Virus record (IMG/VR): IMGVR_UViG_3300032235_000776
Coordinates: 1-64,000 of that record
DNA: 64,000 nt
Source: a virus
Direction: 5' to 3' (one strand)
Part shown: positions 3,241-24,719 of the stretch, in pieces
How the letters are laid out: every line of letters starts with the position of its first letter
Numbering within the stretch: position 1 is the first letter of the stretch
Made by a program: the position numbers and the translations under genes
The notes under the pieces: model-generated
Databases searched by the model: none
What the model saw: the letters and a program-made list of their open reading frames with translations, nothing else
What the model was told of the DNA's origin: nothing

Positions 3241-3730
3241 TGCAGAATTTATTGAGGAGGAAATACATAAGGTAATTGCCTTCTTCAATAGTTTACAAGA
3301 AGGGGATGAGGTAGATTTCTACCTTCATTCTCCAGGAGGATATAATCACGTAATGGAAACAATAAAAAGAATCCTTGAGACTTCTAAGTTTCCCATTACT
3401 CTAATTGCTGCAGGTGAAGTACAATCGGCTGCATTTCTATTGTTTTACTTTTCTAAGTTAAATAAGACTATGCTTCCAAATACTGTGGCCATGCTTCATA
3501 CAATGACTAAAGAGTATGAGGATAGGGACATTCGTCAAAATAGTGATTACTACAAGAAGTCAAAGAAACAATTGGATTCTATGAATGATAGCATAATTAC
3601 TATCCTTGAGACATATAGTGTTTTATCCACTAAGGAAATGCAGGACTACATCAATGGAGAGGATATCTTAGTACTCTCTGATGACCTAGATGCTATCATG
3701 CAAAACTGTCCCTATGGAAATTATTTTTAA
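3218..3730 (+). CDS. ClpP-like serine protease
   Basis: YLHSPGG, VQSAA (catalytic Ser), AMLH (catalytic His). Confidence 0.8.
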   Translation: MKQAYYFDAEFIEEEIHKVIAFFNSLQEGDEVDFYLHSPGGYNHVMETIKRILETSKFPITLIAAGEVQSAAFLLFYFSKLNKTMLPNTVAMLHTMTKEYEDRDIRQNSDYYKKSKKQLDSMNDSIITILETYSVLSTKEMQDYINGEDILVLSDDLDAIMQNCPYGNYF

Positions 3731-3736
3731 AAAAAT

Positions 3737-3767
3737 TTTGGAAATCTAAAATAAAGTGTTATCTTTG
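3737..3767 (+). promoter_or_regulatory. promoter of tRNA operon 1
   Basis: TTTG(3737-40)-N19-TATCTTTG(3760-67), Bacteroidetes primary-sigma consensus. Confidence 0.85.
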
Positions 3768-3775
3768 TATTGTAA

Positions 3776-3850
3776 ATGACAATGAATTTCAATATAGCAA
3801 TTAATAAGGTGTGGGGTGATAGACTCATATCTAGGGGCTATATTATGTAA
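3776..3850 (+). CDS. attenuator leader peptide 1 (MTMNFNIAINKVWGDRLISRGYIM)
   Basis: Near-leaderless ORF; codons 6-16 match array-1 tRNAs; overlaps antiterminator 3829-3839. Confidence 0.85.
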   Translation: MTMNFNIAINKVWGDRLISRGYIM

Positions 3851-3868
3851 TTTACAAGATATTACAAG

Positions 3869-3899
3869 AAGCCTCTAGATAAACTCTAGGGGCTTTTTT
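3869..3899 (+). terminator. attenuator terminator 1
   Basis: AAGCCTCTAGA/TCTAGGGGCTT hairpin plus T-tract; 5' arm can instead pair with ATCTAGGGGCT (3829-3839). Confidence 0.9.
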
Positions 3900-3905
3900 G
3901 TTTTG

Positions 3906-3976
3906 GGGGATAGACACAGGCGAAGTACTTTACATTTGCAATGTAATAGTTTAGGTTTCGATTACCTATATCTCCA
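3906..3976 (+). tRNA. tRNA-Ala(UGC), atypical D arm
   Basis: GGGGATA/TATCTCC-A with G3:U70; anticodon arm TTACA-TTTGCAA-TGTAA. Confidence 0.8.
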
Positions 3977-4030
3977 CAAATACTTTTAAATAATTATTGT
4001 ATTTAAAAGCAAATTTTGTATATTTGTAAT

Positions 4031-4480
4031 ATGAAAAAATGTACAATATGCAAAATTGAAAAGGATGAAGTTAATTTTAATAAGAATAAAACTAGGAAGG
4101 ATGGTATATCAAATGTATGTAAAATTTGCAGCAGAGAAAAATCTTCTACCTACTACAATTCTAATTTAGAAAAACATAGAGAAGAAGTAACTAAAAGAAA
4201 TAACGTACAAAGAGGTTTATTAAAAGATTTTATCAAATCAACGTTAATTACCTCAAAATGTAAAGATTGTGGAAATAAAGATTGGAGAGTTTTAGAATTC
4301 GATCATCTTCCAAATTTTAAAAAAAGAAATGATATTTCATATATGGTTAAAGGAGGGTATAGTTTAGAAAGTATAAAGGATGAAATATCTAAATGTGAAG
4401 TGGTGTGTAGAAATTGTCATTGTATAAGAACAATAGAAAGAAGTGAAAAAGATTATAGAAAAGACTCTTCCGTAGCTTAG
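4031..4480 (+). CDS. HNH-type (homing) endonuclease inserted in tRNA array
   Basis: CxxC pairs, LEFDH, KCEVVCRNCH; own TATATTTG at 4019-4026; stop lies within tRNA-Lys. Confidence 0.8.
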   Translation: MKKCTICKIEKDEVNFNKNKTRKDGISNVCKICSREKSSTYYNSNLEKHREEVTKRNNVQRGLLKDFIKSTLITSKCKDCGNKDWRVLEFDHLPNFKKRNDISYMVKGGYSLESIKDEISKCEVVCRNCHCIRTIERSEKDYRKDSSVA

Positions 4481-4539
4481 TTGGTTAGAGCATTGCACTT
4501 TTAATGCAGAGGTCGGTGGTTCAATTCCACCCGGGAGAA
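4466..4539 (+). tRNA. tRNA-Lys(UUU)
   Basis: TCTTCCG/CGGGAGA; loop CTTTTAA. Confidence 0.95.
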
Positions 4540-4545
4540 CAAAAA

Positions 4546-4617
4546 CCACCTATCGTCCAATGGATAGGACATGGGATTTCTAATCCTTGAATGAGGGTTC
4601 GAGTCCTTCTAGGTGGT
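4546..4617 (+). tRNA. tRNA-Arg(UCU)
   Basis: CCACCTA/TAGGTGG; loop TTTCTAA. Confidence 0.9.
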
Positions 4618-4623
4618 CAATAC

Positions 4624-4692
4624 ACATCCTAGGCTATGGTAGCCAAATGGTCTCCAAAACCATAGGAAATTGTTCGATTCAATTAGGGTGTG
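4624..4692 (+). tRNA. tRNA-Trp(CCA)
   Basis: ACATCCT/AGGGTGT-G; ATGGT-CTCCAAA-ACCAT. Confidence 0.9.
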
Positions 4693-4698
4693 CAAAAT

Positions 4699-4772
4699 TG
4701 TCAATTAGCTCATTTGGTTAGAGCATCACACTGATAATGTGAAGGTGCTAGGTTCGAGTCCTAGATTGACAA
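4699..4772 (+). tRNA. tRNA-Ile(GAU)
   Basis: TGTCAAT/ATTGACA; TCACA-CTGATAA-TGTGA. Confidence 0.95.
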
Positions 4773-4777
4773 CATAT

Positions 4778-4850
4778 TGTGGGGTAGTGCAGCGGCAGCA
4801 TACAGGGCTCATAACCCTAGTGGTCAGGGGTTCGAGTCCCCTCCCCGCAA
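4778..4850 (+). tRNA. tRNA-Met(CAU), initiator-like
   Basis: TGTGGGG/CCCCGCA; three G-C pairs GGG-CTCATAA-CCC in anticodon stem. Confidence 0.85.
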
Positions 4851-4856
4851 CAATAA

Positions 4857-4928
4857 GCAAGTGTAGTATAACGGTTAGTACTCTAGCCTTCCAAGCCTGA
4901 GATGCTGGTTCGATTCCAGTCACTTGCT
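4857..4928 (+). tRNA. tRNA-Gly(UCC)
   Basis: GCAAGTG/CACTTGC-T; loop CTTCCAA. Confidence 0.92.
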
Positions 4929-5045
4929 CAAATGCTCCAGACGTGGAGAACGTAGACAGAAAAGGCCTCTTAATAATGCACACTTTCATCCTAATCGTAG
5001 GTAGGCACAGTTAGTAGATCTGTGGTAATCTTAAAATCTACACTT

Positions 5046-5117
5046 ACTCAAGTAGCTCAGTGGGAGAGCATCTGTTTTACATGCAGAGGGTCGAAGGTTC
5101 AATCCCTTCCTTGAGTA
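5046..5117 (+). tRNA. tRNA-Val(UAC)
   Basis: ACTCAAG/CTTGAGT-A; loop TTTACAT. Confidence 0.93.
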
Positions 5118-5123
5118 CAAAAT

Positions 5124-5197
5124 GGACCTTTAGCTCAATTGGTTAGAGCAACTGACTCATAATCAGAAGGTAGGGAGATCATAACTCTCAAGGTCCA
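5124..5197 (+). tRNA. tRNA(CAU), probably Ile2 (lysidine); elongator Met not excluded
   Basis: GGACCTT/AAGGTCC-A; GA-CTCATAA-TC; Ile2-like body; atypical T loop ATCATAA. Confidence 0.8.
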
Positions 5198-5203
5198 CAA
5201 AAT

Positions 5204-5286
5204 TGTGAGTTCGCATAGAGGCCTAGTGCAGCAGACTGTTAATCTGCCGAAGTAATTCATCATTGGTTCGAATCCAATACTCACAG
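5204..5286 (+). tRNA. tRNA-Asn(GUU) with long variable region
   Basis: TGTGAGT/ACTCACA-G; GCAGA-CTGTTAA-TCTGC. Confidence 0.9.
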
Positions 5287-5291
5287 CAAAT

Positions 5292-5364
5292 GGTCCATAG
5301 GTCAAATGGTTAAGATTTCCCACTGTCTCTGGGTAAGGAACGGGTTCGAATCCCGTATGGACCG
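5292..5364 (+). tRNA. tRNA-Asp(GUC)
   Basis: GGTCCAT/ATGGACC-G; loop CTGTCTC. Confidence 0.9.
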
Positions 5365-5400
5365 CTTTTATTATTCAAATATATGTAGTACCTTTGTAGT

Positions 5401-5676
5401 ATGAAATTAGGATTGGATGATGTATATATAAAGTCAGAAGATTTAGGATTAACAAGTGATATTATTAATCAGTTACATGTACTTGATATAATATCAAATC
5501 CCGAAGGTGAGTTTCTTTATTATCAAGGAGATAATAAATTTTACTATATGTCTTTTAAAAAAAGTGGATACTTAAAAAATCCAGATGGTCCCTGGCATTC
5601 ATTATCCAGTTATAAAAAAATAGATACTAGAACTCCAATAGAAAAAATCAAGCAATGGTTATCTTCTATCTCCTAA
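5401..5676 (+). CDS. hypothetical protein
   Basis: Leaderless ORF after TACCTTTG (5389-5396). Confidence 0.7.
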   Translation: MKLGLDDVYIKSEDLGLTSDIINQLHVLDIISNPEGEFLYYQGDNKFYYMSFKKSGYLKNPDGPWHSLSSYKKIDTRTPIEKIKQWLSSIS

Positions 5677-5734
5677 ACGTAATCTGGATAGTACACCACT
5701 TCCCGAATGATTCAAAAGTAAATTTAATAGAACT

Positions 5735-5914
5735 ATGGAAAAAGTATTTACATATTTAATAAATATTATAAAGAGAAAGAAAATTAAATATAGCACAGGA
5801 CTATGGCATCAATTACACAAAGGAAATGTTATTATATATAATAGTCATCGTAATATTACTAAAAAAGAAGTAGATGAAGTTATTAGTAATTTATTAAATG
5901 GAAAAAATCTTTAG
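5735..5914 (+). CDS. small hypothetical protein (59 aa)
   Basis: MEKVFTYLINIIKRKK...GKNL*; N-terminus similar to next ORF. Confidence 0.5.
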   Translation: MEKVFTYLINIIKRKKIKYSTGLWHQLHKGNVIIYNSHRNITKKEVDEVISNLLNGKNL

Positions 5915-6056
5915 ATATTTAATTAACACAATAAGAAGAGATAGGCCTTCCGGAGTACTTTGGGATTCTTTTTCTAAATCTCAAAAAGAAAATTTTTCAA
6001 AAAAAATCCTGACCCATAAAGAATATATTGATATAAGAGACGGAATATTTGGATAA
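5898..6056 (+). CDS. small hypothetical protein (52 aa)
   Basis: MEKIFRYLINTIRRDR...DGIFG*. Confidence 0.5.
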   Translation: MEKIFRYLINTIRRDRPSGVLWDSFSKSQKENFSKKILTHKEYIDIRDGIFG

Positions 6057-6079
6057 TTAAAAATAAAGTATTATATTTG
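6048..6079 (+). promoter_or_regulatory. promoter of tRNA operon 2
   Basis: TTTG(6048-51)-N20-TATATTTG(6072-79). Confidence 0.85.
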
Positions 6080-6086
6080 TAGTATA

Positions 6087-6140
6087 ATGATGAAGCAATA
6101 TTCATATAGTTCACTCTATTTACCTGATTATTCGGGCTAG
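6087..6140 (+). CDS. attenuator leader peptide 2 (MMKQYSYSSLYLPDYSG)
   Basis: Codons 5-12 are only Tyr/Ser/Leu, matching array 2; TAG stop. Confidence 0.88.
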   Translation: MMKQYSYSSLYLPDYSG

Positions 6141-6165
6141 GAGAGAACTGTATGTAAAAATATAG

Positions 6166-6195
6166 AAACCCTGGCCTAATAAGTCAGGGTTTTTT
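6166..6195 (+). terminator. attenuator terminator 2
   Basis: ACCCTGGC/GTCAGGGT plus T-tract; can instead pair with leader 6123-6141. Confidence 0.9.
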
Positions 6196-6199
6196 ATTT

Positions 6200-6273
6200 A
6201 CCTCTGTGGGCAAACGGTAAAGTCACTGGTCTTAGAAACCAGAGTTTTGGGAGTTCGAATCTCCCCAGGGGTA
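6200..6273 (+). tRNA. tRNA-Leu(UAG), short variable arm
   Basis: ACCTCTG/CAGGGGT-A; CTGGT-CTTAGAA-ACCAG. Confidence 0.9.
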
Positions 6274-6277
6274 CAAT

Positions 6278-6359
6278 GCATCGGTGGTGAAACTGGTAGA
6301 CGCAAGGGACTTAAAATCCCTCGACATATGTCATGTGGGTTCGATTCCCACCCGGTGCA
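6278..6359 (+). tRNA. tRNA-Leu(UAA)
   Basis: GCATCGG/CCGGTGC-A; AGGGA-CTTAAAA-TCCCT; long variable arm. Confidence 0.95.
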
Positions 6360-6364
6360 CAAAT

Positions 6365-6450
6365 AGTAGGTATGCTAGTGGCCTAGCAGTCAGTCTTGAA
6401 AACTGATATACATGGTGAAAATCATGGGGGATCGATACCTCTACCTACTG
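6365..6450 (+). tRNA. tRNA-Ser(UGA)
   Basis: AGTAGGT/ACCTACT-G; TCAGT-CTTGAAA-ACTGA; long variable arm. Confidence 0.88.
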
Positions 6451-6455
6451 CATAT

Positions 6456-6538
6456 AGAAAGTAAACTGAACTGGGTTTAGGCTCCCCTGCTAAGGGATGC
6501 GTAGAGATATCTATTTGGTTCGATTCCAATTCTTTCTG
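6456..6538 (+). tRNA. tRNA-Ser(GCU)
   Basis: AGAAAG/CTTTCT-G; TCCC-CTGCTAA-GGGA; variable arm. Confidence 0.85.
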
Positions 6539-6544
6539 CTATAA

Positions 6545-6625
6545 CCCAACGATGGTAAGGTGGTGAAATCAGAGCACTGTAAATGCTTCGCTTCGGCTAT
6601 TTAGGTTCGATTCCTAACGGTGGGA
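6545..6625 (+). tRNA. tRNA-Tyr(GUA)
   Basis: CCCAACG/CGGTGGG-A; GAGCA-CTGTAAA-TGCTT. Confidence 0.88.
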
Positions 6626-6644
6626 CAAAAAAATTTAAAAAATA

Positions 6645-6675
6645 TTTGACAAATAAATAAAAAGTCATATATTTG
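6645..6675 (+). promoter_or_regulatory. promoter of suppressor-tRNA/Pth unit
   Basis: TTTG(6645-48)-N19-TATATTTG(6668-75). Confidence 0.85.
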
Positions 6676-6686
6676 TAGTGATATAA

Positions 6687-6759
6687 GGACTAATGCTAGT
6701 GGTTAGCAACTTCTCTCTAAAAGAAGCGTCTAAGGGTTCGATTCCCTTTTAGTCCTCCA
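6687..6759 (+). tRNA. amber suppressor tRNA(CUA)
   Basis: GGACTAA/TTAGTCC-T-CCA; CTTCT-CTCTAAA-AGAAG; T arm AAGGG-TTCGATT-CCCTT. Confidence 0.92.
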
Positions 6760-7079
6760 TGGCTTAGATTAAAAAACTCGTAACCGTAACCCGTAGAGAT
6801 TTAACTATCTCTCAACAAGCTGTACAATCTACACATGCAGCTTTAGATTTTGTATTTCAAAATCCCATAACAGCTTTGTTATGGCATCAATCAAATTACC
6901 TTATTCAATTAACCGTAGCTGACGAGGAGGAGTTACTGAATTTAAAAGTCAAACTCTCCGATGTCTCTGTAAAGCATACTGCTTTCAGAGAACCAGATAT
7001 GGACAATCAATTAACTGCTATATGTATAGCACCTGGTAAATTAACAAAGGAAATAACAAAAAAATTTAAATTATTATGA
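6759..7079 (+). CDS. Pth2-like peptidyl-tRNA hydrolase with in-frame TAG at codon 3
   Basis: ATG GCT TAG ATT AAA AAA CTC..., in frame with listed 6876-7079; KLVTVTRRDL..QQAVQSTHAA..FREPD..QLTAICIAP motifs. Confidence 0.82.
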
Positions 7080-7405
7080 TCGCAACTCGCATTATATCCG
7101 CAGAAAATGAAATTTATAATGGTAGACTCATTATAAAATTTGACAGACATAGAATAGTGTTACCTAATAACAACAGTAAAAGAATGTATTTAGGTAAAAG
7201 AAGATACAGAGAATTAATGAATTCAGCAGTAAGTAAAGATATACCTTTAAGATATACTGATGAATATCTATATCATTTACCAAAGAAACTAAAAGAAAGT
7301 ATAGTATTCGATGAACCTGTTAAAGTACAACCTGTTAAAACTCAAGTAGTTACAGAAGAACCTATAAAACAAAAAAGATTTTTTCGATCTTTATTTGGTT
7401 TGTAA
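7076..7405 (+). CDS. hypothetical protein
   Basis: ATGA overlap with Pth2-like gene. Confidence 0.7.
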   Translation: MIATRIISAENEIYNGRLIIKFDRHRIVLPNNNSKRMYLGKRRYRELMNSAVSKDIPLRYTDEYLYHLPKKLKESIVFDEPVKVQPVKTQVVTEEPIKQKRFFRSLFGL

Positions 7406-7425
7406 AAATAAAAGTTGTATATTTG
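7394..7425 (+). promoter_or_regulatory. promoter of tRNA operon 3
   Basis: TTTG(7394-97)-N20-TATATTTG(7418-25). Confidence 0.85.
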
Positions 7426-7429
7426 TAGT

Positions 7430-7504
7430 ATGAAAGTAACATTTACACAGCGTCCAGAGCAACATACCCCATGTTTTACATGGAGTGCTAGGGTCATTGT
7501 GTAA
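7430..7504 (+). CDS. attenuator leader peptide 3 (MKVTFTQRPEQHTPCFTWSARVIV)
   Basis: Codons 4-17 use only, and all of, the 8 amino acids of array 3. Confidence 0.9.
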   Translation: MKVTFTQRPEQHTPCFTWSARVIV

Positions 7505-7532
7505 ATGCATATTCAATATGTCAAAGACTTTG

Positions 7533-7559
7533 AACCCTGGCTAAACACCAGGGTTTTTT
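7533..7559 (+). terminator. attenuator terminator 3
   Basis: AACCCTGG/CCAGGGTT plus T-tract; 5' arm can instead pair with GCTAGGGT (7487-7494). Confidence 0.9.
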
Positions 7560-7566
7560 GTTTTAT

Positions 7567-7639
7567 GCTCGGTTAGTTCACATGGTTAAAACAGTGGGTT
7601 TTCACCCCACAGTAACGAGTTCGATTCTCGTACCGAGTA
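7567..7639 (+). tRNA. tRNA-Glu(UUC)
   Basis: GCTCGGT/ACCGAGT-A; GTGGG-TTTTCAC-CCCAC. Confidence 0.9.
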
Positions 7640-7646
7640 CAAAATT

Positions 7647-7734
7647 CGGGGAGTAGGTCTGTAGTCTGGTAGCAGTCCTGCCTTGGAAGCAGGTGGAGTA
7701 AAATCCCTCGTTGGTTCGAATCCAACCTTCCCGA
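7647..7734 (+). tRNA. tRNA-Pro(UGG) with long variable arm
   Basis: CGGGGAG/CTTCCCG-A; CCTGC-CTTGGAA-GCAGG. Confidence 0.88.
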
Positions 7735-7740
7735 CAATAA

Positions 7741-7812
7741 GTTAGGTTGACTGAATGGTAAGGTCACGGTCTGCAAAACCGCTGTTCGTAGGTTCGATTC
7801 CTACACCTAACT
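7741..7812 (+). tRNA. tRNA-Cys(GCA)
   Basis: GTTAGGT/ACCTAAC-T (U73); loop CTGCAAA. Confidence 0.92.
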
Positions 7813-7816
7813 CTAT

Positions 7817-7891
7817 GGTACATGAGCTAGTCTGGTGATTCAGCGCATGCCTGAAGAGCATGAGAATAAGGTTCGATTCCTTGATGTACCA
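7817..7891 (+). tRNA. tRNA-Phe(GAA)
   Basis: GGTACAT/ATGTACC-A; CATGC-CTGAAGA-GCATG. Confidence 0.9.
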
Positions 7892-7898
7892 CAAATAA

Positions 7899-7972
7899 GC
7901 CTCCAAAGCATAATTGGCTTGATGCACCCGGTTTGTACCCGGGATAACTGGGTTCGACTCCTAGTGGAGGCT
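7899..7972 (+). tRNA. tRNA-Thr(UGU)
   Basis: GCCTCCA/TGGAGGC; CCCGG-TTTGTAC-CCGGG. Confidence 0.92.
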
Positions 7973-7973
7973 C

Positions 7974-8045
7974 TAAGATATAGTTCAGTGAATAGAACAT
8001 CTCCCTACGAAGGAGAAGACATAGGTTTGAATCCTATTATCTTAT
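7974..8045 (+). tRNA. tRNA-Arg(ACG)
   Basis: TAAGATA/TATCTTA; TCTCC-CTACGAA-GGAGA; encoded CCA 8046-48. Confidence 0.9.
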
Positions 8046-8047
8046 CC

Positions 8048-8120
8048 ACTCCGGTCTTCTAATCGGCAGGAAATCTAACTTTGAATTAGATAATAGTAGG
8101 TTCGAATCCTCTCTGGAGTA
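8048..8120 (+). tRNA. tRNA-Gln(UUG)
   Basis: ACTCCGG/CTGGAGT-A; TCTAA-CTTTGAA-TTAGA. Confidence 0.88.
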
Positions 8121-8126
8121 CAATAT

Positions 8127-8198
8127 GGTGTTTGAAGCATTAAGGTGATGCGCTTTCTTGTGACGAAAGAGAATACGGCTCAATACCGTACTAACACC
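8127..8198 (+). tRNA. tRNA-His(GUG)
   Basis: G-1:C73; CTTTC-TTGTGAC-GAAAG. Confidence 0.88.
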
Positions 8199-8262
8199 CT
8201 AATCCATATTCCAATCTATCATAAGTAGGATTATTCCTACTATAATACCAACAATAAATCCT

Positions 8263-9990
8263 TTAATTATTAAGGCTTCCATTAATTAAATTATTAAGTA
8301 ATTCTCTATCTTCTGCTGCTTTATACCAACCTTTTTCATAGAGAGCATCCATTTGACCACCTCTTGAAAAGTGATTGTGAATTGTTTTAGTATTCTCTAC
8401 AATTGCAGCTAAACCCTTGCTTCTCATTTGATGCCATAACCAATTGTCACAACCTACGTGATGGAAGCGAGTATCAAAGATTTCTCCATTTGATAAATAA
8501 TCAATTGCACTTCTTTTGATCATGAAGTGTTCGCACTCTTGTACACCGGTGTTAAAGATAAGTAACTCATAACCAACCTTTTGTGATTTAATTACTGCTT
8601 TGATAAAGTCATCTGCATGGAATACTACATCACTTGCAGCAAAGCAAATAAAGTATCCATTACTTTCTTGTACTCCAATTTTTACTTTTTCCGGCACAGT
8701 TTCATCTCCTTCAATAGTATGAATAGAAATTAACTCCTGAGGATAGTTTTGTTTTGCAATGGAAGCCAGGCATTTATCCAATCCTTCATCTCTATAACCC
8801 ACTACATGAGGGATAATAACAGAGATAGTTGGTAATCCATTGTAAAATCTAAAGTCTCTTAGATAATCCGAGTTATTTGGTTGGTATTCTAAGCACTTAT
8901 TAAGGTGCTCCTTAGCTTCATTAATCATTCCCATAAAGCCATATGCAACATATAGTATTCTATGAGGCTCGTCAGTGTAATGACTCATGTTATTTGCATA
9001 ATAATTATTATATGGAATCTCTAAAGCAGCTTTAGCATATGCTACAGCCTGTAAAAGTCTATTATTAAGTAAGTAAAAATTAGCAAATTCAATGTAAGGT
9101 TCTCTTCTTGAGCCATCAGTGTAGATAGATTGGTTATAGTAATCAACCTGTTTATCCGGCATATTGAGAAATCCATAGCATCTACCTATAAAAATCATGC
9201 TTTGAGCATTTTCCATAGGCATTTTACCCATCGTAAGATGTCTTTTTAACTCTCTAATAGCACTTCTATATCTACCGGTAAACATTAATTCTCTACCAAA
9301 GTAGTGAGAGTTACGATCATTCTCAGGATTAAGGTAAGTATCAATTGCAAGACCTCTTAAGTAATGAGATCTGTTAGTTTCTGGGTTTTGAAAGTGCTCT
9401 AACTTGATTACATCCTCTCCAACATACTGTCTTTTTGCATCTCCCTGTAAAACTTCATGAATTACACCTACCCATTTTAAGCATCTTCTATCATATGCCT
9501 TAGAATGCAGGAATTGAATTGCTGGAGATCCATCAGGAAGGTGACTAAATACAAAATTATACTCCAATTGTTGGATATTATCATCAATTAATTTAGAAAT
9601 TAGATCAATATTAAAGGAAGTAAAGATTTCATCACAATCAGGAGTAAAAATAAAGTCTGTATTGGAGAATGTTGCAATGTAATTCCTTGCAGATGAGTAG
9701 TCAAACTGTCTATCTCCTTCTTTAATTACGTTTGCATCTCCATCTACTACATATTTTTCATTAATTTTGGAAGAAAGCTCTTCATCAACCTTAATAAGGA
9801 ACTTATCTCCTACTGTAATGACATTTGCTCCCCAATTTTTAGCTACTTCCACTGTATTATCAGTAGATCCAGTGTCAAGAATATGTACTTCTCCTCCTCT
9901 GGCTTTAAATTCATCCAGGGATTTTAATAATCTTGGTAGAGTCTTAGACTCATTCCTTGCAATTAGGCAAAATGAAAAATTCATGCACAA
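8263..9990 (-). CDS. GT2 glycosyltransferase-TPR-GT2 fusion
   Basis: LIARNE, DTGSTDNT, SARN, DCDE, IHE motifs; TPR-like middle; second ISVIIP GT2 domain. Confidence 0.9.
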   Translation of the reverse strand: MCMNFSFCLIARNESKTLPRLLKSLDEFKARGGEVHILDTGSTDNTVEVAKNWGANVITVGDKFLIKVDEELSSKINEKYVVDGDANVIKEGDRQFDYSSARNYIATFSNTDFIFTPDCDEIFTSFNIDLISKLIDDNIQQLEYNFVFSHLPDGSPAIQFLHSKAYDRRCLKWVGVIHEVLQGDAKRQYVGEDVIKLEHFQNPETNRSHYLRGLAIDTYLNPENDRNSHYFGRELMFTGRYRSAIRELKRHLTMGKMPMENAQSMIFIGRCYGFLNMPDKQVDYYNQSIYTDGSRREPYIEFANFYLLNNRLLQAVAYAKAALEIPYNNYYANNMSHYTDEPHRILYVAYGFMGMINEAKEHLNKCLEYQPNNSDYLRDFRFYNGLPTISVIIPHVVGYRDEGLDKCLASIAKQNYPQELISIHTIEGDETVPEKVKIGVQESNGYFICFAASDVVFHADDFIKAVIKSQKVGYELLIFNTGVQECEHFMIKRSAIDYLSNGEIFDTRFHHVGCDNWLWHQMRSKGLAAIVENTKTIHNHFSRGGQMDALYEKGWYKAAEDRELLNNLINGSLNN

Positions 9991-9995
9991 ATATA

Positions 9996-10499
9996 TTACT
10001 TTTCCAGTAATTCTATTGCATCAATGTTCTCAACTTCTAATTTTAAATTGTCATCTGCCCATTCTTTAAATGGATTCGGCAACATACTGTACCACTTAGA
10101 TAGTCCAAGTACCCAAGCAAGGTACTCATAGCAATAGAATTTCTCTGCTGCCTTTCTTTCATCGGTATAACCATAGTACTTTCCAGTAACTGTGTTTATT
10201 AATTGATAGAAAAGCAAACTTGCAAAGTCATACTTAGTATTACCTACTTTTGATAGGGCTTTTGCTCTATATGACTTAGGTACTTTGTATACTGTTACCT
10301 TTTGTTCTTTAATCCAATCTTTAAAAGGGATTAATATAACTCCATGCATGTCCGCTTCCACTATAAATTGATTTTTATCAATTGTAATAAGGAATGCTGC
10401 GTGGTTGTAATAAGTTTTTGCAAACTTACGAATTGCCCAAGAGATAAATGTCAAGGGTCTTTTCCAATTTAATGGTGTGTGTACTATTAGTGCTTTCAT
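9996..10499 (-). CDS. permuted papain-like NlpC/P60 (YiiX/YebB-like) enzyme
   Basis: N-terminal YNHAA His, KYDF, C-terminal FYCYEY Cys. Confidence 0.75.
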   Translation of the reverse strand: MKALIVHTPLNWKRPLTFISWAIRKFAKTYYNHAAFLITIDKNQFIVEADMHGVILIPFKDWIKEQKVTVYKVPKSYRAKALSKVGNTKYDFASLLFYQLINTVTGKYYGYTDERKAAEKFYCYEYLAWVLGLSKWYSMLPNPFKEWADDNLKLEVENIDAIELLEK

Positions 10500-13400
10500 T
10501 AGTAATCTGTTTCTATATATACTTTTGCTACTTCTAAATTATCTGCTGCAGCTATGGCTCCATTTCTTACTTCTGCTTTAAATGCCATACCTGTATTTGC
10601 AGCTGGTAAATCTGTAGTGTAACTTGTCTCAAGAACTGTAACTCCAGAATGTATGTTTAAAATTCTTACAAATAATTCTGAACCACCTGGGGCCATATAC
10701 ATTATAAGGTCATAACCATGTGTAGTATTGGACCTTAAAGCATTTGCTCCAAGGTCTACTTTTGTTGCAGTTCCTGTACCGTCATTTCTCATAAAGAACC
10801 AGTTGCCGGCACTGTTATCTGCAGCATCATAACCCATTCCACACATATTAGTTAGTGCTGAAGGTTCCCCAGCTAAGGCACCAGTAGATGCACATAGTCC
10901 TACAAACTTTTGACCACCATTTAAGTTTATGTTAGCACCAAGTTGAGCTCTGAAAAAGAATCCTCCAAATCCTGTAGCAGATCCTCTAAACCATTGAGTA
11001 TAAGCTGTTCTCATACCAGTAGCGTTACCAGCCGTAGTAGATGTTTGGAATCTTTTTCTCCACGTAGCTAACCAAGGACTTGAAGATGCAATTGTTTGTT
11101 GAACAGACATAGTTGCAGCTGTAGTAAGAGTTCCTCCTATTGCTGTTGGAGCACTAGTACCTGAAGCAGGAGCTACTAAGAATACTGCATTACCATGAAG
11201 ACCTACTTGAAGAATTGTATCTACACCACTTGGACCTATAATTTTAGGTAAGTGTCTTCCACCAACTATTTTAGAGTATAGTAGTAATCCACCTGTTGGA
11301 GCAGCCGGGTCAGTAGTAGAAACAAGTTTAAGATTATCTCCAAATATCTCAACATTTGCAGCTCCTGATAATCCTCCTACTCCATTATTATATTGAATTT
11401 CTCCTGTTGTTCCTCCTGGAGTTACTGAAGGACCTGTATATCCTGTATACCCAGTTGCTCCAATAGAACCACTTGGACCAGTGTAGCCTGTATATCCGGT
11501 ATATCCAGTAAAATTACCTGGTCCAGTATATCCAGTATACCCAGTAGGACCTATATTTCCTTGTGGACCTGTAAATCCAGTGAATCCAGTTGGCCCTTGT
11601 GGCCCAGTATAACCAGTAAAACCAGTTGCTCCAATTACACCTTGAGGTCCGGTATAACCGGTAAACCCAGTATACCCAGTTGGACCAGTAACATTTGAAT
11701 CTGCTCCGGTATATCCAGTGTAACCTGTGTAACCTGTTGCACCAATTGGACCATCAGGTCCTGTAAAACCTGTGAAACCGATAGGGCCTATTGGTCCGGT
11801 AAAGCCGGTATATCCTGTATATCCTGTGAAATTACCTGGTCCCGTATAACCTGTAGGTCCCGTATAACCTGTAAAATTTCCTGGACCAGTATATCCAGTG
11901 TAACCCGTTGCTCCTTGTGGACCATTAGGTCCAGTGTAACCCGTAGGACCAGTTGGACTAATAACACTAACAGAAGTTACAACAAACGAATAGAATTGAG
12001 TACCTTCAGTGTAGAAGGTAACTGGGTGAGATCCGCCTCCTATGTTTTTAACATAGATTTTAACAATCATTTTGTCTGTTGTTAGAATGGTTGTTGTAGG
12101 TAGTGTAATATCAGTTAGTACTAAAACTGGTGTAACAGCATCGATCCATGTGATTAATACTGAACTAGAAGTTAATATAGTTCCGTAGCCAACCCCTGCT
12201 GAGTTTGCTAACTCTATAGTAACATATGCTTCAAAATTATGACCTGGAGCACCCTTTAATAAATGTAAGTGGAATTGTTGAACACCACCAGGAATTACTG
12301 CAAAACCAAGTTCAGGTGTTAAAAATTCTTGCATTAACCTACTTGTACCCGAACCAATTCCAGTTTGTAACACTGTTTGTTGAACAGCTCCACTAGGTGT
12401 TATTGCTAATACTTTATATGGAGCTACATCAGAGTTTTGTGATTGATTAAAATAATATGTTGCCCCTAATGAAAGTCCATTAGGCCCAGTGTATCCAGTT
12501 GGACCTGTAACATTTGAGGCAGGTCCCGTATAACCCGTATAACCAGTAAAACCTGTTGCCCCATTACTTCCATTTACCCCTGTATATCCAGTATAGCCTG
12601 TTGCTCCTGTTGCTCCTGCACCAGTATAACCTGTATACCCCGTAGGACCAGTTACTGTTGATGCAGCTCCCTGTGGACCTGTATACCCAGTAAAACCTGT
12701 GGGACCTTGACTACCTTGAGGTCCAGTAAAACCAGTTGGACCAGTAAAACCTATAGGACCAGTAAATCCTGTAAATCCTGTTGCACCTCTTGGACCTGTA
12801 AATCCTGTTGGACCAGTTGGTCCAATACTACCATTTGGACCTGTATATCCGGTAGGACCTGTAACTGTTGATGGTAAACCTGTTGCTCCCGTATACCCAG
12901 TATAGCCAGTGTATCCAGTGTATCCAGTACTTCCTTGATTTCCTGTATAACCCGTAAATCCAGTTGGTCCTGTATAACCTGTAAAGTTACCAGGACCTGT
13001 ATACCCTGTATAACCTGTGTGACCAGTATAACCGGTGTAACCAGTAAAATTACCCGGTCCGGTATAACCAGTGGGACCAGTAGGACCATCAATTCCATCA
13101 TAACCAGTATATCCTGTTGGTCCTGTAGGTCCAATAGGTCCACCTGAAGGACCAGTGTATCCAGTAAAACCGGTGTATCCAGTTGATCCAGTATATCCAG
13201 TATGTCCTGTATATCCAGTCATACCAGTATAACCTGTAGGACCGGTAGCACCAATACCAGATATCTTATAATTACCTGAAGCATCGTGTACTCCCCATTC
13301 CTTACCATCAAACATAGCCATTTCACCAGGAACTAAAATAGTTTGAAAAATTACAAATGAAACTCCATTTACATTTTTTCTAAAAATAATAGTACATGGT

Positions 13401-13615
13401 AAAGCTGCATCAGTATTTGATACAACTAAATTATTTATATTTGCTCTTTTAAGACCATCAGGTGGATAGATGGGATTAATAGTAACAGTGCCAGGAACAT
13501 TTACTTTTCCATATGTATTAGTACTATTTAAATAGTCATATGTCAAAGAATATTCAATAACAGCAGCACTGTCAGTAGTTATAGTAAGTGTATCTTTAGG
13601 TGTTATATATAGCAT
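10499..13615 (-). CDS. collagen-like (G-X-T) fibre protein
   Basis: Two long G-[YFPA]-T triplet tracts separated by a globular domain; C-terminal beta domain. Confidence 0.88.
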
Positions 13616-19037: not shown

Positions 19038-19055
19038 TTCGTATATTAAATTAAA

Positions 19056-21800
19056 ATGAAAATACTAACCGCTTGGGACTTACAACATGGGCAGAAAGCA
19101 GAACCAAAAAAACTTGGATCTGTTTGGCAACCTATACAAATGGTACCTAAGGCCGAGAAAGACGAAGAGTGGAAAAAAACTAACGTAGACTGGTTTGAAA
19201 GTCTTGGTATTAGACAACTCCGTAAAAAGTATAAGAGAACAATTAAGAACTATAGACTTGCAAAAGGTATTATAGAAACAGAAGATTATGTTACTTCTGA
19301 AGACAATGAATATACCGGCATGCTTGAAAAAGTAAAAGGGGATGACTATGATCCACACGTATTGTCTCTTTCATTTTTCCCAATTATTCCAAATGCTATC
19401 AATGTACTTGTAGGTGAATTCTCAAAAAGAAACACTAAGATTACTGTACAGGCTGTAGATGAGTTTTCAAAGAATGAAAAACTTGATGCTAAGATTGATA
19501 ACATTAGAGAATACATGGAGGCTAAAGCTCAATCTAAATTAGTTCAAAAACTTTTAGCTTCTGGATATCAACCACAATCAGAGGAAGAAGTTGCTCAAAT
19601 GAAGCAACAACTTAATCAACAAGTTAAATCTTTACCTGAAATTCAAGACATTTACAGAAAAAAATACAGATCAATAGTAGAACAATGGGGTCAACATCAA
19701 ATCAATATTGATGATGAAAGATTCAAAATGTTTGAACTTGAGAATACTGCATTCAGGGATTATCTAATTACTGACTCGGAATTCTGGCATATTGACTTAA
19801 GAGAAGATGATTATAAAGTAGAGGTTTGGTCTCCACTTCATACTTTCTATCACAAGTCACCAGATGTTAAATATGTAGCTGATGGTAACTACGTAGGTAG
19901 AATTCTAATGATGTCTATTCCGGATGTAATTGACAGATATGGTTATTCTTTAAAAGATGAGGAAGTAAAATCCCTTGAGTATATTTATAATACAACTTTA
20001 CTTCCGATGCCGGCCGGTACAGAAAATACTTTGTACTATGATCCAGCAAGAGGAGTAAATGATCAATCTCCTAACTCTAAAGCAATGCATGACTTACTTG
20101 CTGCAAGAGATATGGTAAGTGATACTAATCTGACTTCTGAAACTTCATTCCTTGGTTGGCTAAACCAAGCATCTGATACTGACCCTTTTAACAAAGGTAT
20201 GGTAAGGGTAACTGAGGTATATTGGAAGTCACAAAAAAGAGTAGGTTACTTAACTAAAATTAATGATCAAGGTGAGGTTGAAACAGATATAGTTACTGAA
20301 GACTATGTAATTATAAATGAACCTTTATTTGATGAGTCTTTCAAAAAGAAAAGAGATGCTGAAACATTAATATTTGGAGAATACATTGAGTGGTTCTGGA
20401 TTAATGAAGTGTGGAGAGGTAAGAAAATTAATACCTTACTTGCACCGGCATTCACAAAGAACTATTCATTTGAACCAATTTATATAGATGTAGCTCCACT
20501 TCCTTTCCAATTTAAAGCTGAAAATGATTTATGGAATGCTAAACTACCGGTAGAAGGTATTACATGTACAGATACTCGTTTGAATATTCCTACTTCTATG
20601 GTAGACTTAATGAAGCCATATCAAGTAATCTATAATCTAGTAAATAACCAGGTTAAAGATATCCTTATTGATGAAGTAGGTAGTGTTGTACTTTTAGATC
20701 AAAACTACTTACCAAAAAATTCAATGGGTGAAGATTGGGGTCAAAACAACTTAGCAAAAGCTTATGTTGCAATGAAAGACTTCCAGATCCTTCCTTTGGA
20801 TACATCGATGGAAAACCTTGAGGGTAGAGCAGGATTTAATCACTACCAAGTATTAAACCTTGAACAAACACAAAGATTATTCTCTCGTTTAAAAGTTGGT
20901 GAATGGGCTAAAATGGAAGCATTTGCTACAATTGGTATTACCCCACAGAGATTAGGATCAGTAGCTGCTTCAGAAACAGCAACCGGTACACAGGCTGCAG
21001 TTAATAACTCATACTCACAAACAGAAACCTACTTTACAAATCACATTAACTTCATCATGCCAAGAGTAAAAGAGATGATGATTAATGCTGCTCAATATTA
21101 CCAATCAAGTAATCCAAGTCTTAACTTACAATATACTACTTCTGATGAAGAAAATATAATGTTCTCATTGGATGGAGCTAAATTACTTGCAAGAGATATC
21201 CAAGTTTATACTCACTTTAAGCCAGATGCTAGAGCTGTATTGGATCAAATGAAACAATTGATTTTACAAAACAATACTTCCGGGGCAAATATTTATGACC
21301 TATTAAAGATTGTATCTTCAAATACTCCATCTGAGGTTGTTGAAGCTGCTAAGAAATCTGTTGATGACTTTAATGCACAGACTCAACAAAAACAACAGCA
21401 TGAACAAGAAATGATGCAGCAACAAATTCAAGCTAAACAACAAGAGCTTGCTGATCAAAGAAGTTACGAGTCTCAAGAGAATGATAAAGATAGACAAACT
21501 AAACTTGCAGAAGCTACAATTAAAGCAATGGGCTTTGCAAATGAGTCTGATGTTGATCTTAATGCTGTACCGGATGTATTGGAAATTGAAAGATTCAATG
21601 CTCAACTTGGTCAGTTTCAAGAAAAACTATTGATGGACAAAGAAAAGATGAGTAGTCAAAGGGATATTGAAAACAAAAAGATCTCTTTAAAAGAGCAAGA
21701 ATTAATGACTAAGAGAGAAATTGCAGAGAAACAATTAGAGATTGCAAGGGAAAATAAGACCAATGCTGAACTAAAAAGAGATAAAAGCAATAAGAAATAA
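19056..21800 (+). CDS. portal protein
   Basis: 914 aa after TerL; SMVDLMKPYQ..YN, GITPQRLG; coiled-coil C-terminus. Confidence 0.88.
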   Translation: MKILTAWDLQHGQKAEPKKLGSVWQPIQMVPKAEKDEEWKKTNVDWFESLGIRQLRKKYKRTIKNYRLAKGIIETEDYVTSEDNEYTGMLEKVKGDDYDPHVLSLSFFPIIPNAINVLVGEFSKRNTKITVQAVDEFSKNEKLDAKIDNIREYMEAKAQSKLVQKLLASGYQPQSEEEVAQMKQQLNQQVKSLPEIQDIYRKKYRSIVEQWGQHQINIDDERFKMFELENTAFRDYLITDSEFWHIDLREDDYKVEVWSPLHTFYHKSPDVKYVADGNYVGRILMMSIPDVIDRYGYSLKDEEVKSLEYIYNTTLLPMPAGTENTLYYDPARGVNDQSPNSKAMHDLLAARDMVSDTNLTSETSFLGWLNQASDTDPFNKGMVRVTEVYWKSQKRVGYLTKINDQGEVETDIVTEDYVIINEPLFDESFKKKRDAETLIFGEYIEWFWINEVWRGKKINTLLAPAFTKNYSFEPIYIDVAPLPFQFKAENDLWNAKLPVEGITCTDTRLNIPTSMVDLMKPYQVIYNLVNNQVKDILIDEVGSVVLLDQNYLPKNSMGEDWGQNNLAKAYVAMKDFQILPLDTSMENLEGRAGFNHYQVLNLEQTQRLFSRLKVGEWAKMEAFATIGITPQRLGSVAASETATGTQAAVNNSYSQTETYFTNHINFIMPRVKEMMINAAQYYQSSNPSLNLQYTTSDEENIMFSLDGAKLLARDIQVYTHFKPDARAVLDQMKQLILQNNTSGANIYDLLKIVSSNTPSEVVEAAKKSVDDFNAQTQQKQQHEQEMMQQQIQAKQQELADQRSYESQENDKDRQTKLAEATIKAMGFANESDVDLNAVPDVLEIERFNAQLGQFQEKLLMDKEKMSSQRDIENKKISLKEQELMTKREIAEKQLEIARENKTNAELKRDKSNKK

Positions 21801-23105: not shown

Positions 23106-24719
23106 ATGGCAACACCAGTATTAAACAATGGTATATTCCTTAGAGATACCAAGTACGACCCGATGGGTACCCACTTTGACCGTGCCCACTTATCAACTTT
23201 ATCACCTACATCTTCTGATGACATGGGTATTATCGACTTATGGGCTCAAACCCAAAAGAAAGAGATGCCTCTTTACACAATGTCTTCATTTGGTGGTAAA
23301 AACACTATTTACACAGAGAACCAGAAATACAAATGGAAAGTTCCTGTACAATCTGTAATGCCTTACATCGTTGAGGACATTATTCCTGTAGACGTTGAAA
23401 AGCCAGGTGTCGATGGACAAACTTTCCAAATTAAGTTGAACAACAACTATTTTGGTCATAGCTCTATCATCACTTATGACAAATACAACGGTTTAGAAAT
23501 GTATGTAACTGAAGATCCAATTCTTCGTCATGGTGATGGTTATGTATACACTGTTAAGTTGATGAACAACAAAAACAGTCAGTACATTGACAGATCATTC
23601 TTGAAGCCAGGTACACACGTATTCAGAAAAGGTTCTGTAAGAGATGAGCACTCAACAATGTTTGATGACTTCAAATTTGCTGATGGCGGTTACAGAGAAT
23701 TCTTCAACTGGGTAGGTACCGGTAGAGCTAACTCTCATTACTCAGTATCTGATACTGCAGCTCAAATGGGTATGGCTAATGAAGTAGTTGAGTTGATTAA
23801 AATCGACGATTCTATGGATCCTAACGTACAAAAAATTGAAGATCTAGTAGCTTTACGTGGTAAAGACTACATGAAAGGTCTTGCTAAAGATGGTAAATTA
23901 AACTACACTTGGTTACGTAAAGTAGACGCTGCACACATGAAGAAAGTCATGATGGACGTAGAAAACTACTTAATGTGGGGTCAAGGTGGTTGGGTTCGTG
24001 GTAACATGGGTCCAGATGACACCTACTTACCAGTTGGTTTGTGGAAACAGTTAGACAACGGTTACAAAGTTGTTTACACTCGTGACTCTTTCAACTTCAG
24101 TATGTTTGAAAATGAAATTTTCAACTTCTTCAATGGTAAAGTAAACTTTGAAGGTCCAGATTCTGGTCGTAAATTGATCGTTCAAACCGGTAAAGCTGGT
24201 ATGAAGATGATCCACAATGCGATTCAAAGAGAGGTTGCTGCATCAGGTATGTTGTTAAATGCTACTGATGTAGGATCATTGAGCGGTGAAAGAATGAACC
24301 TTGAGTGGGGAATTTCTTACACTAAGATCAAGATTCCTTTCTTGGCTAACCTTGAGTTCGTTTATAACGCTGCATTTGACAACGTTAACCAGAACTCAAT
24401 TGAAAACCCATTGATCGAAGGTTACAACTTGAGTTCTTACTCATTCATTATCTATGACTTCAACTATGCTCAAGGTTCTGACAACATTAAATTGTTAAAA
24501 TGGGCTCCAGGTAAAGATGTAGCTACTTCTGATATGAGATGGTTCTTCCAAAACGGTACCTTTGATTACTTCGGTAAAAAATCAGGTTTCGCTTCAACCG
24601 GTAACTTCTCTGGTTATAAGGTATTCTTCGAAATGAACTACCCTGCTATCTGGGTACAAGACCCCACCAAGGTTCTGAAGTTCGTTATGAAAAACCCTAT
24701 CACTGGCGGTTCACTTTAA
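23106..24719 (+). CDS. major capsid protein
   Basis: Synteny, 537 aa, strong high-expression codon bias (AAC/TTC/CGT), strong terminator after. Confidence 0.85.
   Translation: MATPVLNNGIFLRDTKYDPMGTHFDRAHLSTLSPTSSDDMGIIDLWAQTQKKEMPLYTMSSFGGKNTIYTENQKYKWKVPVQSVMPYIVEDIIPVDVEKPGVDGQTFQIKLNNNYFGHSSIITYDKYNGLEMYVTEDPILRHGDGYVYTVKLMNNKNSQYIDRSFLKPGTHVFRKGSVRDEHSTMFDDFKFADGGYREFFNWVGTGRANSHYSVSDTAAQMGMANEVVELIKIDDSMDPNVQKIEDLVALRGKDYMKGLAKDGKLNYTWLRKVDAAHMKKVMMDVENYLMWGQGGWVRGNMGPDDTYLPVGLWKQLDNGYKVVYTRDSFNFSMFENEIFNFFNGKVNFEGPDSGRKLIVQTGKAGMKMIHNAIQREVAASGMLLNATDVGSLSGERMNLEWGISYTKIKIPFLANLEFVYNAAFDNVNQNSIENPLIEGYNLSSYSFIIYDFNYAQGSDNIKLLKWAPGKDVATSDMRWFFQNGTFDYFGKKSGFASTGNFSGYKVFFEMNYPAIWVQDPTKVLKFVMKNPITGGSL

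Follow-up and report, generated by a model that had tools for sequence, protein, structure and literature searches.

Enterobacterial leader-peptide attenuators include multivalent ones, thr (Thr/Ile) and ilvGMEDA (Ile/Leu/Val), along with trpL, hisL, leuL, and pheL, each of which responds to a single amino acid; furthermore, the pheM leader attenuates pheST, the phenylalanyl-tRNA synthetase operon of Escherichia coli. The trn operon of Anabaena sp. PCC 7120, which consists of 26 tRNA genes, stays silent until translational stress and is controlled at the promoter, by the ribbon-helix-helix (RHH) repressor TrcR that binds direct repeats (PMC8421152, PMC10272220); the words attenuator, leader, and terminator are absent from the 2021 paper on this operon. 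Here we describe three tRNA operons located within the first 64 kb (hereafter, the window) of the IMG/VR virus record IMGVR_UViG_3300032235_000776 (91,958 bases; estimated completeness, 75%), each of which follows a cassette that probably functions as a ribosome-mediated attenuator, coupling transcription of the operon to the speed at which the operon's own codons are decoded. Judging from the match of the open reading frame (ORF) at 23106–24719 to the Crassvirus major capsid family, this phage is crAss-like. The author of the original prediction for this locus knew of no description of such a system and, indeed, we found in the literature no description of leader-peptide attenuation for tRNA genes, of leaders listing 3–12 amino acids, or of leader-peptide attenuation in phages.

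The anatomy of the cassettes, the match between the leader codons and the tRNAs, the alternative pairings, and the covariation across phages were established from sequence and by computation, whereas translation of the leaders, actual termination and read-through, and the physiological trigger are inferred. In the mechanism we propose, transcription would start at a Bacteroidetes-type promoter and yield a leaderless mRNA, the short ORF of which would be translated at once; centrally, this ORF contains a run of codons that match the tRNAs of the operon that follows. If every one of these codons is decoded fast, the ribosome would arrive at the 3' part of the ORF and cover the segment of the leader that we denote region 2, the terminator hairpin would form, and transcription would stop 7–10 nt before the first tRNA. 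Should the ribosome stall on any codon of the run, because the respective tRNA is scarce, cleaved, or uncharged, region 2 would stay free and pair with the 5' arm of the terminator, and RNA polymerase would enter the tRNA genes. The outcome would be closed-loop, panel-wise control of the phage tRNA supply, with the trigger possibly being depletion or decay of the host tRNAs, anticodon nucleases, or simple homeostasis.

All three tRNA blocks in the window are preceded by the same succession of elements, namely, a Bacteroidetes-type promoter, a leaderless ORF, and a G+C-rich hairpin with a U-tail, followed by the first tRNA; this threefold architecture had been proposed in the original prediction and was confirmed by pattern, ORF, and terminator searches. 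The elements of the cassettes, with the helix-forming regions numbered 1 to 4, and the operons behind them are the following:

3737–3767, plus strand: promoter 1, found by pattern match, with the -33 box TTTG and the -7 box TAnnTTTG, the latter ending 8 nt before the ATG
3776–3850, plus strand: leader ORF 1, 24 codons, with the run of own-operon codons at codons 6–16
3791–3798, plus strand: region 1 of attenuator 1 (1:2 helix), forming a perfect 8-bp inverted repeat with 3837–3844
3828–3844, plus strand: region 2 of attenuator 1 (5' strand of the antiterminator), a direct copy of the terminator 3' arm
3866–3904, plus strand: terminator 1 (regions 3 and 4) with U-tail; hairpin at 3866–3898 from the terminator scan, 14 pairs, -18.1 kcal/mol
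3905–5365, plus strand: operon 1 (block 1), Ala-UGC, an HNH-like ORF (4031–4480) behind an internal promoter, and the remaining ten tRNAs, Lys, Arg-UCU, Trp, Ile, Met(CAU), Gly and, past a 116-nt spacer, Val, Met(CAU), Asn, Asp
6048–6079, plus strand: promoter 2, found by pattern match
6087–6140, plus strand: leader ORF 2, 17 codons and a TAG stop, with the run at codons 5–12
6098–6163, plus strand: 1:2 helix of attenuator 2, formed by 6098–6112 with 6145–6163, region 2 being 6134–6143; from ViennaRNA folds with and without ribosome masks
6166–6199, plus strand: terminator 2 with U-tail; hairpin at 6166–6192 from the repeat search and ViennaRNA, 13-nt arms, -14.6 kcal/mol
6200–6626, plus strand: operon 2 (block 2), Leu-UAG, Leu-UAA, Ser-UGA, Ser-GCU, Tyr-GUA
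7394–7425, plus strand: promoter 3, found by pattern match, with the ATG 4 nt after the -7 box
7430–7504, plus strand: leader ORF 3, 24 codons, with the run at codons 4–17
7440–7507, plus strand: 1:2 helix of attenuator 3, formed by 7440–7461 with 7486–7507, region 2 being 7487–7496; from the inverted-repeat search and ViennaRNA
7532–7566, plus strand: terminator 3 with U-tail; hairpin at 7532–7556 from the terminator scan and the inverted-repeat search
7567–8199, plus strand: operon 3 (block 3), Glu, Pro, Cys, Phe, Thr, Arg-ACG, Gln, His

The promoter pattern TTTGG-N(15-24)-TAnnTTTG occurs six times in the 64 kb, compared with 1.6 occurrences expected, and three of the six are directly 5' of the leaders. 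The ATG codons of the leaders are located 4–8 nt after the -7 box, which is the same spacing as at the real genes starting at 4031 and 5401, and therefore the transcripts appear to be leaderless mRNAs. The hairpin stem is separated from the first tRNA by 7–10 nt that contain no promoter, so that blocks 2 and 3 as well as the first tRNA of block 1 would be reachable only by read-through.

With the default parameters, ARAGORN, which the original prediction had suggested for confirming the anticodons, called 22 tRNA genes in the window. Three more, Ala-UGC (3905–3977, independently above the Rfam gathering score), Ser-GCU (6460–6539), and His-GUG (8128–8199), were detected at a relaxed threshold, bringing the number to 25; leader codons for Ala, His, and Ser-GCU pointed to these three genes. 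The three blocks combined serve all 20 amino acids, and each amino acid is listed in the leader of its own block. Each leader contains a central run of codons that is restricted to the amino acids of its own block: 11 codons in leader 1 (codons 6–16: Asn Ile Ala Ile Asn Lys Val Trp Gly Asp Arg-AGA), 8 codons in leader 2 (codons 5–12: Tyr Ser Tyr Ser Ser Leu Tyr Leu), and 14 codons in leader 3 (codons 4–17: Thr Phe Thr Gln Arg-CGU Pro Glu Gln His Thr Pro Cys Phe Thr). Every amino acid of a block (10, 3, and 8, respectively) is present in the block's own leader, with Met in leader 1 encoded only by the ATG codons 1 and 3, outside the run. Across the whole peptides, 18 of 23, 10 of 16, and 15 of 23 residues belong to the own set, compared with 1–9 residues for the other sets.

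The match between the leader codons and the tRNAs is far beyond chance: in 200,000 permutations of the amino-acid labels, neither the observed total nor the observed run lengths were attained (p ≤ 5e-6). Thus, the central assertion of the original prediction, that the codons in the middle of each leader name the tRNAs of its own array, is borne out. At the codon level, this holds also for the Arg isoacceptors, with AGA in leader 1 matched by Arg-UCU and CGU in leader 3 matched by Arg-ACG. Strict wobble suffices for an own-block anticodon to read 29 of the 33 run codons, and the remaining four require four-way wobble of U34 or the second CAU tRNA.

In all three leaders, the 3' part of the ORF is complementary to the 5' arm of the terminator, as was noticed originally: in leader 1, the repeat search identified 92% complementarity between 3828–3839 and 3870–3881 (the 2:3 pairing, or antiterminator), and the folds include such pairing for each leader. 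The duplex of region 2 of leader 1 with terminator 1 (-16.5 kcal/mol) is the best among those with 21 terminators. The three 1:2 helices that had been proposed are real as well (3791–3798 with 3837–3844, and those within 6098–6112/6145–6163, a helix that appears in the minimum-free-energy fold, and within 7440–7461/7486–7507), but the one in leader 1 is weak.

Equilibrium folding of the full leader together with the terminator speaks against a switch, in that the terminator always wins. In the trp attenuator, the terminator likewise wins at equilibrium, and therefore the switch in the phage leaders must be kinetic, as it is in trp. Because the full-length equilibrium fold invariably gives the terminator, the switch was judged on shortened transcripts that end before the terminator 3' arm, with the ribosome represented by a mask of about 30 nt, the A site of which was placed at each codon in turn.

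In these simulations, without a ribosome, leaders 2 and 3 fold into the 1:2 helix, which leaves the terminator 5' arm free, whereas leader 1 forms the antiterminator because its 8-bp 1:2 helix is weak and loses to the 2:3 helix at equilibrium. When the ribosome is positioned within a stall-sensitive window that spans codons 2–15 in leader 1, 3–12 in leader 2, and 2–15 in leader 3, the antiterminator forms with a probability of 0.7–0.95 (0.7–0.9 while the A site is in the run); past this window, up to and including the stop codon, the ribosome masks region 2 and the terminator 5' arm is free. Folding with ribosome masks, a check that had been suggested with the original prediction, thus reproduces the 1:2, 2:3, and 3:4 pattern of an attenuator, with the 1:2 helix prevailing in leaders 2 and 3 only. 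In this model, the run of own-block codons lies within the stall-sensitive window and ends where stalling is predicted to lose its effect, and the residues that follow the run are those that are constrained by RNA pairing. The result was repeated for 11 leaders from six phages, where the antiterminator probability falls within 1–2 codons of the end of the run. Furthermore, in 9 of 21 leaders, the 3' part binds the leader's own terminator arm better than the 20 others, and the observed total was reached in none of 20,000 trials in which leaders and terminators were reassigned by shuffling (p ≤ 5e-5).

Among GenBank phages, there is no close DNA relative of this phage, with scattered tRNA matches only, and a tblastn search of the same phages with PTH2, a peptidyl-tRNA hydrolase encoded between the blocks, found only huge uncultured phages and Mycobacterium phages, and no cultured relative. 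The ClpP-like neighbor, used as a search anchor in IMG/VR, yielded no relatives. Related loci in IMG/VR were collected by two routes, alignment of PTH2 (80 loci) and the promoter motif (120 more loci). The cassette recurs in at least nine other IMG/VR contigs, in which the tRNAs are partitioned differently and the leaders are changed to match. Covariation of leader codons with array content, which had been put forward as a potentially refuting test, turned out in favor of the attenuator, the clean Trp/Glu swap being a case in point. Loci L005, L029, and L160 possess three operons, as in the window, but with Trp and Glu exchanged between operons; in these loci, the run in the leader for Pro, Thr, Cys, Phe, Gln, His, and Arg includes Trp and lacks Glu, and the leader for Lys, Val, Arg, Asn, Met, Gly, Asp, Ile, and Ala includes Glu and lacks Trp, the reverse of the placement in the window and in L037.

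Other loci vary on the same theme. In L005, an Ile-UAU tRNA is paired with ATA in the leader; L050 and L083 have an operon for Pro, His, Ser, Tyr, Leu, and Gln, the leader of which contains a 14-codon run of exactly those residues; and in L070 and L082, where no Ile tRNA was identified, the tRNAs are divided between only two operons, for which 12 and 8 amino acids were called, and both leaders follow this split, with AGA accompanied by Arg-UCU and CGC by Arg-ACG. The pairing of AGA with Arg-UCU and of CGY with Arg-ACG holds in the window, L005, L029, L037, and L082, and further variants of the cassette are found in L053, L092, L175, and L201. Among the 711 short ORFs located just 5' of tRNAs in the searched loci, these leaders dominate the top of the run-probability ranking. 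The leader peptides are not conserved except for the choice of amino acids, which tracks the tRNA set.

Candidate leaders in L043, L047, L055, and L056, where the ORF overlaps a tRNA-like sequence, and in L013, with a four-residue run and no terminator, were rejected as chance matches or artifacts. In most of the remaining PTH2 loci that have large tRNA arrays, a simple scan revealed no such leader; many of these loci come from phage records longer than 200 kb. L083 (phage G004) additionally contains an ORF (13174–13248) that ends in six Arg codons, CGT, CGC, AGG, CGC, AGA, and CGG, and precedes four Arg tRNAs (UCU, CCU, ACG, and UCG), all four of which are jointly called upon by the six codons, as well as an ORF with four Gln codons (19053–19085) that precedes two Gln tRNAs. 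No recognizable terminator was found at these Arg-only and Gln-only ORFs, which may represent a different form of the same control.

Taken together, the sequence-level predictions of an attenuator hold for the promoter, the leaderless ORF, the terminator next to the first tRNA, the mutually exclusive antiterminator, and the placement of the codon run, but the original formulation, under which replacement tRNAs are transcribed only when a ribosome stalls on a codon of the respective panel, is too absolute for operon 1. For this operon, the original description needs correction: only the Ala tRNA is located directly behind terminator 1, and it is followed, on its 3' side, by the internal promoter and the HNH-like ORF, so that the ten tRNAs beyond these may escape the gate and be transcribed independently. 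That leader 1 lists these ten tRNAs argues that they belong to the regulated unit nevertheless. Along with the equilibrium folds and the division of operon 1, several other observations weigh against the attenuator. The antiterminator forms without any ribosome in leader 1 and in several relatives, so that a lack of translation would result in read-through there, and 5 of the 21 leaders have no convincing antiterminator in the tested segment. The second leader of L037 (ORF 5776–5841) retains codons for Val, Gly, Ile, Trp, and Arg, the tRNAs for which are absent from that 88%-complete record; hence, the tracking is imperfect, and a leader may outlive the lost tRNA genes. Finally, two Arg-AGA codons occur in the wrong leader, one in leader 1 of L082 and the other in the 5' part of leader A of L029.

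On balance, we consider it reasonably probable that a codon-resolved, closed-loop sensor of the decoding capacity of the cell operates in phages of several unrelated lineages, with each operon autoregulated by a leader that samples just those codons that the tRNAs of the operon read, and with tRNA species replaced only upon failure, caused, for example, by host anticodon nucleases or by decay of the host tRNAs. The same machinery could, instead, sense amino-acid starvation (that is, tRNA charging) or general translation stress, or act as a timer that opens late, as host translation decays. Leader-peptide attenuators, such as those of trp, his, and pheST, inherently respond to charged tRNA, the sequence cannot separate charging from abundance, and the presence of the PTH2 gene between the operons fits the theme of translation stress. 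However, an extra tRNA would give no relief from amino-acid starvation, and the strict one-to-one match between codons and tRNAs makes sense mainly as feedback on the tRNA supply, so that we regard these alternatives as unlikely.

Considerably less plausible is the notion that the mini-ORFs are independent micro-genes or small RNAs with terminators of their own, the tRNAs being produced by leak-through or from internal promoters and the codon match being a by-product. Internal promoters do exist, at 4031 in the window and in similar form in L005 and L037, and the Arg-only and Gln-only ORFs of L083 precede tRNAs without a recognizable terminator. Arguments against this notion are that the peptides are conserved solely in an amino-acid choice that follows the tRNA set, that the run ends exactly where the ribosome begins to mask region 2, that the antiterminator covaries with the terminator, and that there is no promoter between the terminator and the first tRNA.

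Even less credence can be given to translation-independent sensing, in which the row of codons would pair directly with tRNA anticodons, in the manner of a T-box with many specifiers, and stabilize the antiterminator. T-box elements indeed sense tRNAs by codon-anticodon pairing, and the codon run is single-stranded in several folds. Nevertheless, the T-box family is absent from the 38 Rfam matches in the region 3400–8600 (E ≤ 1), neither Stem I nor a T-box bulge is present, an unbroken frame extends over the codons from an ATG at the leaderless position to the stop, and the geometry fits the footprint of a ribosome. In the same region, none of the curated Rfam leader families (Thr_leader, His_leader, Trp_leader, Leu_leader, and others) reached the gathering threshold, the only such matches being those to Thr_leader (22–24 bits vs 55) and the trpB motif (32 vs 59). 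The reversed logic, whereby read-through depends on an advancing ribosome and termination on a stalled one, deserves equally little weight: leader 2 ends in TAG and a suppressor tRNA gene (CUA) lies downstream, such that suppression would carry the ribosome through 12 more codons, across the terminator 5' arm to the TAA at 6177–6179, and would open operon 2, but this stop is not conserved (TAA or TGA in L005, L029, and L037), the distance of 15–53 nt from the stop codons to the terminator stem is too large for melting by a terminating ribosome, and masks at late codons free the terminator.

The suppressor tRNA gene (anticodon CUA, 6687–6759) has its own promoter and stands apart from the three blocks, outside the gate; comparison with other tRNAs was uninformative as to its identity. 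The 3' end of this gene abuts the ATG of the PTH2 gene (6759–7079), the third codon of which is an in-frame TAG. Given that the PTH2 homologs P0001 and P0007 contain Gln in the aligned position, the alignment suggests that Gln is inserted at this TAG and that PTH2 requires the suppressor tRNA for expression. The same layout of the tRNA and PTH2 is found in L005, with TAG at codon 4 followed by ATG.

The HNH-like ORF of operon 1 (4031–4480) consists of 149 codons, is Cys-rich, has its own promoter, and overlaps with its 3' end the start of tRNA-Lys; a Pfam search with this ORF produced no significant match. HNH-like ORFs or insertions between tRNAs are present in relatives as well, and in L037, a duplicated 5' half of tRNA-Cys (about 4066–4106) flanks one such ORF and looks like the footprint of a homing endonuclease. 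In the 116-nt spacer of array 1 (4930–5045), no tRNA was detected even at a very relaxed ARAGORN threshold, and the Rfam match was weak and at chance level.

Several of the tRNAs have unusual features. Both tRNA-Asn (5204–5287, 84 nt) and tRNA-Pro (7647–7735, 89 nt) are unusually long for their class; the tRNA-Sec model gives the latter a higher score than the general tRNA model does, so that a long variable arm or an insertion may be present. The CAU tRNA at 4778–4851 has three G-C pairs in the anticodon stem, as do initiator tRNAs. The other CAU tRNA, at 5124–5198, is similar to Ile tRNAs. It may be Ile2, which, with the lysidine modification, decodes ATA; this codon occurs in leader 1.

The tRNA region is flanked by a PhoH/ClpP-like gene pair on one side and by a convergent glycosyltransferase gene on the other. 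The glycosyltransferase/TPR protein (8263–9990) adjoins a protein of 1038 residues encoded on the minus strand, opposite to the tRNA region (10499–13615), that contains nine stretches of collagen triple-helix repeats.

If the attenuator is real, it would extend leader-peptide attenuation for the first time to tRNA genes, a new target class, and would be the broadest multivalent attenuator known, with up to 12 amino acids per leader and 20 across the three leaders. It would also explain how phages regulate large tRNA sets. Because each leader predicts which tRNA losses should open which operon, it becomes directly testable whether phage tRNAs respond to depletion or cleavage of host tRNAs, and the cassette itself would be a compact, naturally occurring sensor of decoding speed at the resolution of single codons. 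For genome annotation, the cassettes mark the boundaries of tRNA operons and help find tRNA genes that are missed by standard tools.

Similarly to the enterobacterial attenuators, the phage cassettes combine a short, presumably translated leader that carries the regulatory codons with an intrinsic terminator and with 1:2, 2:3, and 3:4 helices that are predicted to be mutually exclusive (the 1:2 helix of leader 1 being weak), and stalling on hungry codons would lead to read-through. Unlike the enterobacterial attenuators, which control biosynthetic enzymes, the phage cassettes regulate tRNA genes; their leaders list 3–12 amino acids, mostly once or twice each, in contrast to the runs of one to three amino acids in the enterobacterial leaders; and they are borne by phages, with a Bacteroidetes-type promoter and a leaderless mRNA. 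With T-boxes, the cassettes would share the choice between terminator and antiterminator that is set by the state of a particular tRNA, but the T-box binds the tRNA directly and is translation-free, whereas the phage codons form an ORF. The Anabaena trn operon, the nearest published case, likewise consists of accessory tRNA genes that are induced upon impairment of translation, but its control acts at the promoter, via the repeats bound by TrcR. The pheM-pheST system resembles the phage cassettes in that a component of the translation apparatus is subject to leader-peptide attenuation through sensing of the tRNA that the product serves; there, however, the product is a synthetase for one amino acid, encoded in the chromosome, whereas the output of the phage cassette would be the sensed tRNA itself, that is, direct feedback.

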